A stretch of DNA of 64,000 nt, from positions 270,843-334,842 of the forward strand of contig CAWJYV010000001.1 of the NCBI GenBank assembly GCA_963847185.1. The letters are read 5' to 3'. The notes beneath the pieces were generated by a model. The model did no database searches and was not told the DNA's origin. It saw only the letters and a list, made by a program, of their open reading frames with translations. Both the position numbers and the translations under genes were made by a program. Below are positions 25,991 to 57,341 of the stretch, in pieces. How positions within the stretch are numbered: position 1 is the stretch's first letter; every line of letters starts with the position of its first letter. This stretch comes from an uncultured Methanosarcinaceae archaeon (GTDB taxonomy: Archaea; Halobacteriota; Methanosarcinia; Methanosarcinales; Methanosarcinaceae).

Positions 25991-28183
25991 ATGAAGCCAT
26001 ATGCCGATAATCTCGAACATCTTCTGGACGAACTTTCCAGAATAGATTTGCTAATACAAAGTTACGTTGATAGTTTTAGAGAAGAATTTCCTGAGACTGG
26101 AGACGAATTTAGAGGTCTTTATATATCAGAAGCTGAAATCGACCAGATCCAAAAAAATCCAGGTATTAGAAGCAAAAAGGGAAAATTGCAAGAGGTAAAA
26201 ATTGAAAAGTTTACGGAAATTGATTCAGTAAGAAATAAAATTAATGCCAAAAAAGAAGAAAGCCTTAAAAAAGGTATTGAACTAAGACTTCATATTCTTT
26301 CGGAACTTTTTTGTCTTGATTCTTTCGAGATAGATATTCTTTTAATCGGGCTTGCCCCGGAACTGGACCTCAAATATGAAAAGCTTTATTCATATCTTCA
26401 AAATGACGTGATGAAAAAAAAGCCGACCATAGATCTGATTCTGACTTTTCTCTTCCCAATAATCGAGGAAAAAATCAAAGCTAGAGCCTATTTTTCACCT
26501 TCTTCCTCCCTTCGAAAAAACCAGCTGATTCATCTATTGGATGGAGAAGCAAACTCAGGTTCCTCCCTGATATCTAACTCTATCAAAATCGATGAAAGAA
26601 TAATTAATTTTTTACTCGGGTTTGATGAGCTTGATCCAGGAATTCGGGATTCTTGTTATGTGATAAAGCCTGAAAAATCTTTTGATTACCTGATTCTGCC
26701 TGAGGATTTAAAAAGTAAGCTAGTAAAAATGGTAAGCTGGTACAGGGGAAACAGGTTTCCAATGAAGCTTTTGCTTTGCGGTACTTCAGGAAGTGGAAAA
26801 AAAACTGCCGCAGAAGCTGTCTGCAGGGAGACAGGAGCAAACCTTTTAATAGTGGATTCAAAAGTCCTGCTAGAAGGCAAGTCGATAGATACTGCAAATC
26901 TCATAATGCGAGAATCACTCCTGCAAAATTATGTGCTATATTTTCAAGCTTTTGATGTGTTTCTCGAAGACAAAGAAACAATAAATTATTCTGAAATTCT
27001 CATTCAGGCTCTAAAGGCCTTCCCTGGATGGATATTTTTAGCAGGAAAAAAACCTATGGAATTTGATAAAGATTTGATAAATAACGGTTTCGTCCCTTGT
27101 TCCTTTCCTCTGCCTTCATACTCGGTTCGTAAACAGTTATGGGAATCCTGCCTGAAAAATTATAAATTGGCCGAAGGGGTGGGCTTGAATGCGCTTGCGA
27201 GCAAATTCAAATTTAATGGCGGTCAAATAATAGATGCTGCCCGCACAGCATGCAGTTTTGCAGGAGAAAAAAATCCTGCTAGCCCGGTATTATCAATGGA
27301 AGAGCTCTATAAAGGCTGCAAAATACAGACTCACCACAAACTCAACTCCTTTGCCCTGAGAACCAGTCCGCATTATAAATGGGAAGATATTGTCCTTCCG
27401 AAAGACACTATGGAGCATTTAAAAGAGATTTCCAGCTTTATCAAATATAAAGGAAAGGTGCATTCCGACTGGGGCTTTGAAAAAAAATTATCTCTAGGAA
27501 AAGGCTTGAATGTTCTTTTTTCAGGTCCTCCCGGAACCGGAAAAACTATGGCTGCAGAAATTCTCGCAAATGAGGTAAAGCTTGATCTTTACAAAATTGA
27601 CCTTTCCAGTGTGGTCAGCAAGTACATAGGTGAGACAGAGAAAAATCTGAAGAAGATCTTTGATGAAGCTGAAACAAGCAATTCAATCCTCTTCTTTGAT
27701 GAAGCCGATGCCCTCTTTGGAAAACGTTCTGAAGTTAAGGATGCTCATGATAGGTATGCCAACATAGAGATCAGTTACCTGCTTCAAAAGATGGAAGAGT
27801 ATGAAGGAATTGTTATACTTGCGACAAACCTGCACGGAAATATCGATGATGCTTTTCTGAGGAGAATGCAATTTGTTATAGAGTTTCCATTCCCTGATGA
27901 AAAACTGCGATTGCAGATATGGACCAGGATTTTTCCGGAAGATGCGCCTCTTGCTAAGGATGTAAATTACAAGTTTTTCTCAGATAAATTAAAACTTGCT
28001 GGAGGAAATATTAAAAATATTGCACTTGCGGCGGCATTTCAAGCTGCAGAGGGGTCTTGCGATATCGGGATGCGTCAACTCATGCATGCTACAAAAAGAG
28101 AATATCAGAAAATCGGAAAACCTTTTTTGAAGGTAGACTTTGAGCCATATTACAAACTGATAGAATCGGAGGAGGTGCAATGA
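25991..28183 (+). CDS. eCIS AAA+ ATPase (Afp15/Pvc15-like) with N-terminal winged-helix-like region
   Basis: Degenerate first P-loop GTSGSGKK; second module GPPGTGKT, VVSKYIGETEKNL, LFFDEADALFGKR, DRYAN.E.SYLLQ and LATN. Confidence 0.92.
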   Translation: MKPYADNLEHLLDELSRIDLLIQSYVDSFREEFPETGDEFRGLYISEAEIDQIQKNPGIRSKKGKLQEVKIEKFTEIDSVRNKINAKKEESLKKGIELRLHILSELFCLDSFEIDILLIGLAPELDLKYEKLYSYLQNDVMKKKPTIDLILTFLFPIIEEKIKARAYFSPSSSLRKNQLIHLLDGEANSGSSLISNSIKIDERIINFLLGFDELDPGIRDSCYVIKPEKSFDYLILPEDLKSKLVKMVSWYRGNRFPMKLLLCGTSGSGKKTAAEAVCRETGANLLIVDSKVLLEGKSIDTANLIMRESLLQNYVLYFQAFDVFLEDKETINYSEILIQALKAFPGWIFLAGKKPMEFDKDLINNGFVPCSFPLPSYSVRKQLWESCLKNYKLAEGVGLNALASKFKFNGGQIIDAARTACSFAGEKNPASPVLSMEELYKGCKIQTHHKLNSFALRTSPHYKWEDIVLPKDTMEHLKEISSFIKYKGKVHSDWGFEKKLSLGKGLNVLFSGPPGTGKTMAAEILANEVKLDLYKIDLSSVVSKYIGETEKNLKKIFDEAETSNSILFFDEADALFGKRSEVKDAHDRYANIEISYLLQKMEEYEGIVILATNLHGNIDDAFLRRMQFVIEFPFPDEKLRLQIWTRIFPEDAPLAKDVNYKFFSDKLKLAGGNIKNIALAAAFQAAEGSCDIGMRQLMHATKREYQKIGKPFLKVDFEPYYKLIESEEVQ

Positions 28184-55592: not shown

Positions 55593-57341
55593 ATGACTGA
55601 AAGAACACAGGCTGCCAAAGCAACTGAGTCAAAAGCAGAAGCTCCAAGTTCACAAGTGCGAAAAGTTGAGCATCCCCTATCCATAAATTCGCCAGTCGAA
55701 CAGATTCTATTCCTTCAGAGGACTGCAGGTAATCAGGCAGTCCAGAAACTGATTAAATCACGAGCCTTACAGGCTAAACTCAGGATCAGCCAGCCTAATG
55801 ATATACATGAACAGGAGGCTGATAGGGTTGCTGACCAGATAATAAGAATGCCGGATCCTGTACTTCAGCCAAAGCGAAAATGTCCATTGGAAGAAGGTCT
55901 TTCGTGCGAAGAAGATGCGAAGGGAGAACTCAAGGACAGAACGCTGATGAAAAAGGAAGTGCAAACAAATGTTCGAAATTCTCATATTCCCTCCATTGTT
56001 CATGAAGTTATACAATCACCAGGAGAAACGCTGGATATCAATACTCGTACCTTTTTTGAACCCAGGTTTGGATATGATTTTAGCAATGTTAGGGTACACA
56101 CTGATACACAAGCCGCCGAGTCTGCACATTCTATTAATGCGAAAGCCTACACTGTAGGTCGAGATATAGTATTTGGAATTGGCCAATATAATCCAAGAAC
56201 TGATAAAGGACTTATAGCACATGAACTGGCTCATGTTGTACAGCAAGGGTTTGGTATCAAACAAATTCAGCGCCAGAGTAATGGTGGCTCTGACGAGTGC
56301 AAAGACAGAGGCCCGGCAGACGGTGAAGGTCATCCTTTGATATATAATTGCCAGGAAGCTAATTCCCTTGGAAGTCCGGAACAGAAACGATGTAAACGGC
56401 CGGCAGTAGGTCATGCACAACAATTGCTTAACAAATTCTTACACAGGTATGATAATTGGAAATCAGGCACAGGTACTGACACATTGGCTTGTGCAGGAGG
56501 AGATTCTGCACAGATCCAAGCCCTAAGAAGTACATTGCCTGCACAGCTTAAAGTTGATTGCTGGTTTGGTGATTTAACTTATCGAGCTACAAGAATGTTC
56601 CAATTATGCGATGGTGGGCTCAATGATGATGGCAAGATAGGTGAGAAAACTTGGCCTGCTTTAGAAATAGCAGGAACTGGCGGACTCCCACCAGCAAAAA
56701 TCCCACCGACTAAAAAGCGGCCACCGACACCGATTCCTGCGCCAGCATTCCGTTGCGGGCCGGACGTTAGCAGCCAGGTGCGGGCAGCGGTCACCAAAGT
56801 TATCTCCAACTGGGCCGGTTGGAGCTCGTCGGAACGTGATACGCAATGTGATGCACTGGACAGTAGCAAACTTGGTACAGTCGCGTGGGACATCGAAGAT
56901 CTACACAACCAGGCTTGGATCCTCGGTTACCAACCGACCTGCGCGACAGCCGGAGCTTCTCCTCCATGTCACAACTCGGTAGAAGTCGACAACAACTGCT
57001 ACTACGCCGGGTCAGCAAACTATGTCGTCTTCGGAACCATGTGCAAGCTTTGTGACGGACACCTGGGATGGAAATGGCACACGCCCTATCTAGGATTTAT
57101 CCGCGGCTTTCCGGAGTGGTATATGCAATACCTGATCACACTCTACAAGGGGCCGCTGCCCCTCCGTCCTGCGGCGGCGAACTACGTGCCCTCGTTAAAG
57201 TGGGCGACAGCCGGTTTCCACGGCTGGCCATCGGGGGGAGCCCCGCCTGCTGGCGATCGTCCAGGGTGTGCGACGGGTTGCCTAACGCCATACGGTGGTC
57301 AACCATTTGTGGTTCACTGGTGGCCCCATGCGCCCTTCTGA
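55593..57341 (+). CDS. DUF4157 effector with a peptidoglycan-binding-like (PG_binding_1) domain and Cys/Trp-rich C-terminal domain
   Basis: LQRTAGNQAV, LQAKL.ISQP.D.HEQEAD and FEPRFG.DFS.VRVH..AYTVG..IAHELAHVVQQ; V...QQLL..LKVD..FG..T..A...FQ....L..DG.IG.KTW.AL; tip C GPDV..C..SV.V...CYYAG..NY. Confidence 0.85.
   Translation: MTERTQAAKATESKAEAPSSQVRKVEHPLSINSPVEQILFLQRTAGNQAVQKLIKSRALQAKLRISQPNDIHEQEADRVADQIIRMPDPVLQPKRKCPLEEGLSCEEDAKGELKDRTLMKKEVQTNVRNSHIPSIVHEVIQSPGETLDINTRTFFEPRFGYDFSNVRVHTDTQAAESAHSINAKAYTVGRDIVFGIGQYNPRTDKGLIAHELAHVVQQGFGIKQIQRQSNGGSDECKDRGPADGEGHPLIYNCQEANSLGSPEQKRCKRPAVGHAQQLLNKFLHRYDNWKSGTGTDTLACAGGDSAQIQALRSTLPAQLKVDCWFGDLTYRATRMFQLCDGGLNDDGKIGEKTWPALEIAGTGGLPPAKIPPTKKRPPTPIPAPAFRCGPDVSSQVRAAVTKVISNWAGWSSSERDTQCDALDSSKLGTVAWDIEDLHNQAWILGYQPTCATAGASPPCHNSVEVDNNCYYAGSANYVVFGTMCKLCDGHLGWKWHTPYLGFIRGFPEWYMQYLITLYKGPLPLRPAAANYVPSLKWATAGFHGWPSGGAPPAGDRPGCATGCLTPYGGQPFVVHWWPHAPF

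Follow-up and report, generated by a model that had tools for sequence, protein, structure and literature searches.

A probably complete contractile injection system with fibres and DUF4157 effectors in a Methanosarcina chromosome

The gene cluster and its core machine

We analysed a 64,000-nucleotide (nt) stretch of DNA (the window) from an uncultured Methanosarcinaceae archaeon (contig CAWJYV010000001.1, positions 270,843 to 334,842 of the forward strand), in which position 64000, the right edge, is the end of the contig. Window positions 25612–57341 hold a cluster whose long open reading frames (ORFs) all lie on the + strand and whose gene content is that of a contractile injection system (CIS). 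We put at about 0.7 the probability that this is a complete, selectively maintained lineage-II CIS, belonging to the Afp/PVC-like superfamily of extracellular CIS (eCIS) or phage-like protein translocation structures (PLTS), in a Methanosarcina chromosome. A sequence-only reading of the window had listed the parts of such a machine; searches with Pfam (core families above gathering scores), PHROGs and NCBIfam recovered them where it had placed them, on the + strand, with qualifications on the weaker parts. Ten ORFs were compared with PHROGs, and 6 of these, a 579-amino-acid (aa) ORF among them, gave no match.

The cluster begins at 25612 rather than at the 25991 first proposed, with a conserved 110-aa ORF of unassigned function ahead of the ATPase gene (25612–25944, +). 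We count this ORF as part of the cluster because it is kept just 5′ of the ATPase gene in 7 of the 10 related loci (64–77% identity; ratio of non-synonymous to synonymous substitution rates (dN/dS) 0.29). It had no Pfam, PHROG or PADLOC match and the ESM Atlas yielded nothing usable; a HMMER search of 1.84 billion proteins found 32 representatives at E ≤ 1e-3, all short. The adjoining gene encodes an AAA+ ATPase of the Afp15/Cis15 type with an N-terminal winged-helix domain (25979–28183, +; E 1.2e-57 for the winged-helix domain and 1.9e-39 for AAA; dN/dS 0.17) and is followed by the cap, or tail terminator (Pvc16_N, DUF4255; 28180–28755, +; Pfam 6.9e-40). A second 110-aa ORF of unassigned function (28752–29084, +) has no family match, weak matches at 27–28% in 3 of the 10 related loci and a dN/dS of 0.22.

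The 616-aa sheath protein (29616–31466, +; Phage_sheath_1C 1.4e-16, Phage_sheath_1 1.4e-13) comes next. An internal tandem duplication in its gene (29920–30494, unit about 260 nt, 81% identical; repeat family D6) probably doubles a surface-exposed insertion domain. Two tube proteins of the T4 gp19 family follow (31491–31934, +, 6.4e-45; and 32513–32938, +, 1.1e-40), the first of which is 100% identical in amino acids to its orthologue in the close relative G054. Between them lies a 122-aa tail-assembly-chaperone-like protein (31957–32325, +; 62–66% identity in 9 of the 10 related loci), a role that stands on its one PHROG match, phrog_508 (1.6e-8). The 579-aa putative tape measure (32942–34681, +) is named from its position between tube 2 and the tube initiator; it had no Pfam, PHROGs or NCBIfam match, and tblastn found it in none of the 10 related loci. 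The tube initiator itself (Afp7/Cis7-like; 34681–35289, +) is well identified (CIS_tube 1.2e-24). Its degenerate C-terminal LysM, listed by the sequence-only reading, is weak and sub-threshold (E 0.095), although the protein aligns end to end with a LysM-annotated homologue from Halogeometricum borinquense (34% identity, E 1e-34).

The spike and baseplate genes complete the machine. VgrG is split into an N-terminal half (gp27/GPD; 35303–36352, +; Phage_GPD 2.6e-7, YQBQ 1.1e-9) and a C-terminal half with the gp5 OB fold, or base V (36349–37032, +; Phage_base_V 4.6e-27), and the PAAR spike tip (37929–38345, +; 2e-10) has counterparts at 76–78% identity in only 3 of the 10 related loci. The gp25 sheath initiator (38347–38745, +; 1.7e-26) leads into a 1324-aa Afp11/Cis11-like large baseplate-J protein (38745–42719, +; Baseplate_J 2.1e-17, TIGR02243 1.1e-78), which has an N-terminal extension of about 780 aa and Protein Data Bank (PDB) matches to 9gtp_1K (1.6e-62), 7aeb_G and 7b5h_AH. 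Behind it are a second, 364-aa baseplate-J-like wedge protein (42998–44092, +; Baseplate_J 3.7e-7, phrog_6 1.6e-15) and a P2 gpI-like baseplate protein (44109–44825, +; Tail_P2_I 8.2e-9).

Eight core components have been defined for eCIS, namely the Afp1/5 tube, Afp2–4 sheath, Afp7, Afp8 VgrG, Afp9 gp25, Afp11, Afp15 and Afp16 (Chen et al. 2019, PMC6899500, cited here in part). All eight are present by Pfam above gathering scores, co-oriented within 17 kb, which bears out the claim of a complete locus with intact core ORFs. In a Kyte–Doolittle scan, 32 of the 33 ORFs showed no membrane-spanning segment, and the remaining ORF, a doubtful one of 79 aa, had a weak one; the absence of a candidate membrane anchor, noted from sequence alone, thus stood.

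Fibres and DUF4157 effectors

Three fibre genes had been claimed 3′ of the baseplate genes. Two are supported by tail-fibre PHROGs, namely fibre 2 (47437–49686, +; 749 aa; best 1.8e-19) and fibre 3 (50606–52753, +; 715 aa), which ends in an S74 intramolecular chaperone (Peptidase_S74 8.6e-10). Fibre 1 (44822–46339, +) is recognized by a CIS13/Afp13-like N-terminus that falls under the family cut-off (NCBIfam CIS13_fam 2.8e-17, residues 11–107), and its central 130 aa resemble part of fibres 2 and 3 (63–65% identity). The latter two share 61% identity over their first approximately 540 aa and are unrelated over their last approximately 200 residues, and the 5′ flank and N-terminus of fibre 2 (47202–47501, 300 nt) are 94% identical in DNA to the fibre 3 counterpart. 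Such an arrangement is typical of alternative receptor-binding tips. Against PDB sequences, fibre 2 had a single weak match (E 0.0029) and fibre 3 had no match. Two small ORFs adjoin the fibres: a 208-aa possible fibre accessory (46376–47002, +), matchless in all libraries and found in none of the 10 related loci, and a conserved 71-aa ORF (52750–52965, +) that has a four-base overlap with the 3′ end of the fibre 3 gene, occurs in 4 of the 10 related loci at 60–70% identity and has only weak matches to coiled-coil families.

The 3′ end of the cluster encodes two proteins with an N-terminal DUF4157 module. Effector 1 (53322–55010, +; eCIS_core 7.8e-10) carries a predicted transglutaminase-like Cys-His-Asp C-terminal domain and is followed by a 160-aa partner, a candidate immunity protein (55039–55521, +; 6 homologues at 56–62% identity); effector 2 (55581–57341, +; eCIS_core 2.1e-28) has a cysteine-rich helical C-terminal domain. 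DUF4157 has been tied to eCIS toxins and immunity genes (Geller et al. 2021, PMC8213781, in part), and in H. borinquense DUF4157 proteins are secreted in a CIS-dependent manner and are toxic, with a downstream gene that protects (Zachs et al. 2024, PMC11566945, in part). An orphan third DUF4157 gene lies about 260 kb away (L118:2116-3978; G000:C1:9115-10977), followed by a 507-aa ORF (L118:5422-6945; G000:C1:12421-13944) with several fibre repeats of the form VGIGTTTP..KL.V.G. The motif LQRT-x-GN-x-AV, read from the sequences, is common to both effectors and the orphan protein near the N-terminus. Over 275 N-terminal residues effector 1 matches the orphan at 58% identity; beyond them the two proteins are unrelated. 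The layout of polymorphic toxins is therefore present, with a common N-terminal module, variable C-termini and a downstream partner gene; the sequence-only reading had already called the effectors polymorphic.

To characterize the effector 1 C-terminal domain, a query of 263 residues beginning at protein residue 300 was used. It has 76 homologues, of which about 60 are fused to DUF4157; the closest are bacterial, the best at 72–74% identity, with a Methylobacter-named protein at 74%. C110, H140 and D163 (query numbering) are invariant across 45 sequences (44 homologues and the query). The domain had no Pfam match at E 5, no NCBIfam match and no PDB sequence match at E 10. Its AlphaFold2 (AF2) model was predicted with a mean local confidence (pLDDT) of 95.5, and structural comparison using VIA-align yielded Z-scores of 9.1 for Ceg10 (root-mean-square deviation 4.0, 153 residues aligned), 7.0 for RavJ, 6.0 for LapG and 5.1 for factor XIII. 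Foldseek pointed to the same transglutaminase-like and papain-like families, but only at E ≥ 0.01, and ESM Atlas scores of 0.79–0.82 are leads only. These features predict a transglutaminase-like/papain-like fold with a Cys-His-Asp triad, and hence a putative enzyme.

The partner gene most likely encodes the immunity protein of effector 1. Homologues of the partner were located in 4 metagenome loci, and in 3 of these the gene follows an effector-1-type domain at a distance of 27–222 nt (G+C 48–75% there), the layout of a toxin–immunity pair. A complex prediction for the C-terminal domain with the 160-aa partner scored 0.00, below the mark; the predicted fold of the partner was itself uncertain, and the result weighs neither way.

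Of the 28 homologues of the effector 2 C-terminal domain, 23 have DUF4157 and 11 have OmpA; nine Cys residues of the domain are invariant. A peptidoglycan-binding domain was considered for this protein and is not claimed: PG_binding_1 was sub-threshold (E 0.0014–0.0035), SleB and PDB peptidoglycan-binding matches were weak, and pLDDT in the AF2 model was <50 there. OmpA, PG_binding or SH3 domains occur on some bacterial homologues of both effectors (11 of 28 for effector 2, 5 of 76 for effector 1). As evidence for the bacterial cell wall as a target this is a hint only, and for effector 1 the conserved partner gene in an archaeon speaks against it.

Maintenance, relatives and genome setting

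Selection on the cluster was estimated by the Nei–Gojobori method for 12 CIS genes and 2 flanking genes, using as reference a contig of the close relative (G054:C83) that is collinear with window positions 19167–37030, flanks included, at 92.5–95% nucleotide identity. Values of dN/dS were 0.00–0.29 for 11 of the 12 CIS genes, much like those of the flanking pair (0.16 and 0.22), and the same 11 CIS orthologues were full-length and free of stops. The exception was the tape-measure candidate, which evolves faster (86% amino-acid identity to G054, against 87–100% for the other 11 genes). The CIS genes are under purifying selection, in keeping with the maintained locus that the sequence-only reading had suggested. 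We also compared contigs of a sludge metatranscriptome, run X1, with window positions 25600–45599 (20 kb). Altogether 89 contigs were found, 13 at ≥99%, 40 at 95–99% and 36 at 90–95% identity, and they touched all 30 of 30 bins, which shows that the locus of a close relative is in an RNA library. Two further runs, X2 and X3, contained almost solely copies of a repeat described below.

The cluster is syntenic with 10 loci, which come from the genomes of 9 further species of the genus. Sheath homologues are found in 27 of the 59 species genomes of the genus, this one included; one genome has a near-identical sheath (97%) and the remainder match at 36–55% over partial alignments, so several CIS lineages coexist in the genus. 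Across the order, the cap family is present in 84 of 284 species genomes, 51 of the 166 high-quality ones and 14 of 31 genera. By record title, the closest ATPases are from Methanosarcina and Methanosarcinales (57–92%), followed by Methanoperedens (51–57%) and many bacterial phyla (41–50%). A quick maximum-likelihood ATPase tree was built with 45 rows, comprising the window, 39 of 80 loci (40 were picked by hand, and one with a stop codon was removed) and 5 plasmid references. Methanosarcina and Methanoperedens formed one clade inside the bacterial radiation, with a Shimodaira–Hasegawa-like approximate likelihood-ratio (SH-aLRT) support of 100, while the two haloarchaeal sequences stood apart on a long branch of their own; this tree was flagged for long branches and for unlike composition.

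By gene content the locus fits eCIS subtype IIa or IIc, the two in which archaeal loci have been placed: afp8 is split into gp27 and gp5 ORFs, afp11 is present in two copies, and there are a PAAR gene and afp12- and afp13-like genes. Most IIc loci lack the last two (Chen et al. 2019, PMC6899500, in part). As regards the choice between the two, the gpI-like protein and the CIS13-like fibre N-terminus are present, and the quick ATPase tree parts the clade from the haloarchaeal IIa systems.

Loci of this kind are already catalogued in Methanosarcinales, and the novelty implied by the sequence-only reading was overstated. Afp/PVC-like loci were reported in 35 archaea, including Methanomethylovorans hollandica, with two baseplate-J genes and a VgrG divided between a GPD ORF and a base-V ORF (Sarris et al. 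2014, PMC4122934). PLTS/CIS have also been described in anaerobic methanotrophic (ANME) lineages (ANME-2/3, Methanoperedens) and in a Methanosarcinaceae relative (Chadwick et al. 2022, PMC9012536; and a paper of 2025, PMC12180501). The archaeal loci of Sarris et al. belong to the same superfamily and share the architecture of the window copy, including the split VgrG and the two baseplate-J genes. Compared with other Methanosarcinales loci, the window copy has three fibre cassettes, a particular effector pair and two insertions of the repeat. The earlier remark that no methanogen CIS has been characterized functionally held: a literature search, supplementary tables apart, found no such study, and methanogen CIS are described as ‘not explored’ (Zachs et al. 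2024, PMC11566945, in part).

Since the structural families are all of phage-tail origin, the locus could in principle be a remnant myovirus prophage or a tailocin without cargo function, a reading we find barely credible. Profiles for the HK97-type capsid (PF05065), TerL (PF03354) and portal (PF04860) were unmatched in the 99.8%-complete genome (other capsid and terminase families were not searched); the same searches gave matches in 3–4 of 14 control genomes. On these grounds the provirus reading is rejected; head genes of these three families, which would have refuted the sequence-only reading, were not found. The AAA+ ATPase, the Pvc16 cap and DUF4157 are marks of CIS rather than of phage tails (PMC6899500 and PMC8213781, both in part), and purifying selection and synteny across species of the genus also argue against a remnant. 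With respect to type VI secretion systems (T6SS), TssM/IcmF (PF06761) had no match in the genome, TssJ, TssL and TssK lying outside the search.

The locus is chromosomal and present once in the genome (a single match each for sheath and cap), and the window holds no tRNA genes that could provide an integration site. Its G+C content rises to 0.45–0.48 over 54–58 kb, the effector genes, against roughly 0.36–0.42 over the structural genes, which fits recent acquisition of the cargo. A palindromic repeat of about 120 nt, resembling a miniature inverted-repeat transposable element (MITE), has at least 24 copies of at least 100 nt in the genome. One copy (29215–29334) lies in the gap 5′ of the sheath gene; this insertion is recent, because the site is empty in the 92–95% identical relative (G054:C83) and in an RNA-library contig. 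A second copy (37331–37451) sits inside the 0.9-kb gap before the PAAR gene, and a further one is found outside the cluster at about 5974–6097.

The left flank consists of housekeeping genes (Mch, MoaE/MobB, MobA, TtuA, NUDIX and Trm5); on the right, genes for a caspase-family and a CHAT protein precede nuclease-like frames. A gene 2.6 kb 5′ of the cluster (21103–23388, −) encodes a protein of 761 aa that combines a peptidase M6 catalytic domain with proprotein-convertase P-domains; it is syntenic in the closest relative and has no evident tie to the CIS. Two genes that had been called decayed, one iron-sulfur-flavoprotein-like (7365–7940, −) and one staphylococcal-nuclease-like (62737–63613, +), are each spread across three reading frames, as a spot check showed. 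Directly 3′ of the effectors are the caspase-family (Peptidase_C14) gene (57718–58542) and the gene for the 939-aa CHAT protein (59791–62610). This genome has a second caspase copy, 93% identical, close to the end of a different contig (C6:80834-81658), and another caspase lies about 20 kb downstream of a different CIS sheath in the close relative (G054:C52); a homologue of the CHAT protein, at 73% identity, comes after the CIS of one further locus. A role for the caspase as a CIS component is unsupported, the gene being present in 10 of the 59 genomes of the genus, of which some lack a sheath match.

Possible modes of action

The sheath was compared with solved structures. The best matches were 8bky/9gtp (4e-111), 8bl4/9gts (4.8e-108) and 9ezm (2.6e-98), the last of which we take to be a membrane-bound haloarchaeal sheath; those of PVC (5e-48) and Afp (1e-42) were far weaker. 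Entry 9GTP is cited by an eLife paper on the cytoplasmic CIS of Streptomyces coelicolor (PMC12237407, in part), and the ‘extracellular’ in the label first given to the locus is an assumption. The Afp and PVC systems themselves (lineage I; Serratia, Photorhabdus) share with the window the core parts, fibres after the baseplate, 3′ effectors and the ATPase–cap pair. They are distant in sequence, with ATPases 32–33% identical and sheath E-values of 1e-42 to 5e-48, and differ in having three sheath genes where there is one here; in the window, moreover, the ATPase and cap genes are at the 5′ end and the cargo is marked by DUF4157.

One of the two nearest studied systems is that of H. borinquense, an ‘archaeal T6SS’ of clade IIa that shares the split VgrG, two baseplate-assembly genes, PAAR, LysM tube initiator, cap and ATPase (PMC11566945, in part), as well as DUF4157 toxins with downstream partner genes. 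Haloarchaeal CIS are membrane-bound, which correlates with a six-helix membrane protein, Hbor_38620, and one haloarchaeal clade without this anchor may work differently (PMC11566945, in part). A membrane-anchored, contact-dependent machine of this type would fire outward from the inner membrane face into a touching cell, with the fibres or an unrecognized protein as the tether. We consider this unlikely for the window locus. In its favour, the only archaeal CIS studied to date is anchored in this way (PMC11566945, in part), the gene content is held in common, down to the two baseplate-J genes and the toxins with their partners, and the tube initiators are 34% identical; firing from inside the cell would also sidestep release, no lysis genes having been recognized.

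Several observations nevertheless weigh against an anchored machine. A 388-aa protein with about 6–7 hydrophobic segments is encoded at the expected place on pHBOR03 (HBOR_RS17580), and its identity with Hbor_38620 is deduced from position and topology only. This putative anchor had no homologue by tblastn in the genome (best E 1.5) or in the 10 related loci (best E 0.33), and the haloarchaeal clade that lacks the anchor may itself act differently (PMC11566945, in part). The ATPase is 33% identical to that of H. borinquense, as against 41–50% to many bacterial ATPases, and the Methanosarcinales clade (SH-aLRT 100) stands among bacteria, on a branch apart from the haloarchaea. Three fibres with divergent tips are, moreover, more easily read as target binders than as tethers. 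The two systems also differ in layout: the genes run in a single direction here, whereas those of H. borinquense form two subclusters, and that CIS is plasmid-borne and the window CIS chromosomal.

A cytoplasmic CIS that fires in its own cell, for regulated death or development as in S. coelicolor, seems to us highly improbable, though it could bear on multicellular Methanosarcina aggregates. The S. coelicolor CIS (type IId) is the best solved-structure sequence match for both the sheath (8bky/9gtp 4e-111) and the baseplate protein (9gtp_1K 1.6e-62), the matched entry being one that the S. coelicolor paper cites (PMC12237407, in part), and the caspase-family and CHAT genes directly 3′ of the locus would suit such a role. 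In Streptomyces, however, the CIS has no fibre genes and needs a bitopic membrane protein, CisA, which is encoded where eCIS loci carry fibres (PMC12237407, in part). That position, 3′ of the baseplate genes, is taken in the window by three fibre-like genes without a membrane-spanning segment by Kyte–Doolittle, and a CisA-like protein was not found. Type IId loci moreover carry VgrG as one unsplit gene and have afp11 once (PMC6899500, in part), where in the window VgrG is split, the baseplate-J genes number two and the fibres three. Attack on others, more than self-killing, is what one would expect of a toxin whose partner gene is conserved, and the caspase gene is present in genus genomes without a sheath match too.

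Of the modes considered, a released, fibre-targeted particle is in our view the likeliest, at about even odds. Release is favoured because there are three fibre genes with divergent tips and because the membrane proteins of the two nearest studied systems were not found. The sheathed tube would be built with the ATPase, cap, chaperone-like protein and putative tape measure, on a baseplate made of gp25, the two baseplate-J proteins and the gpI-like protein, with the split VgrG as spike and PAAR at its tip. Toxins tagged with the conserved DUF4157 N-terminal module and differing in their C-termini would be loaded as cargo, and contraction of the sheath would push spike and cargo into an adjacent cell. 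Loading of DUF4157 toxins is suggested by the gene families together with published work (PMC8213781 and PMC11566945, both in part). Effector 1 would act as a transglutaminase-fold Cys-His-Asp enzyme and the downstream gene would provide immunity. The candidate toxin–immunity pair points to antagonism among microbes, close relatives included.

A number of observations count against this picture or against parts of it. The closest solved sheaths are 8bky/9gtp and their like rather than those of the extracellular PVC and Afp. No lysis or release gene is recognizable anywhere in the locus, and the membrane scan, a simple Kyte–Doolittle window rather than a trained predictor, is crude. The tape-measure orthologue in G054 is split over two frames near residue 160–176, for a protein whose role is positional only; the split may be an error in the assembly of that metagenome-assembled genome or real decay. 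The two MITE-like insertions in intergenic gaps could disturb transcription of the cluster. The X1 contigs are compatible with carried-over DNA and come from a 90–99% identical relative, another strain. The fold of the effector 2 C-terminal domain was not recognized (Foldseek best E 4.8; VIA-align best Z 5.0).

A bolder version of the released particle is possible, if doubtful. The locus would then be the first truly extracellular, fibre-targeted archaeal injection particle, freed without holin or endolysin, perhaps by the altruistic death of a few cells in which the caspase and CHAT proteins might join, and its toxin–immunity cassettes would have come recently from bacteria. The 74% identity of the effector 1 C-terminal domain to the Methylobacter protein and the local G+C of 45–48%, as opposed to some 38–40%, are the reasons for proposing a bacterial origin of the cassettes. 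Were this so, bacteria as well as rival archaea of anaerobic sludge and sediment could be attacked with the particle.

How methanogens, which inhabit dense syntrophic consortia, fight or signal to their neighbours is almost unstudied. CIS are frequent in the group. The one archaeal CIS so far studied comes from another lineage, that of the haloarchaea. For Methanosarcina, genetic tools are available. The value of the locus described here is as a good model, intact, under selection and apparently in an RNA library, rather than as a new kind of system, and it opens the questions of release versus tether, of bacterial versus archaeal targets and of how the DUF4157 toxins act.

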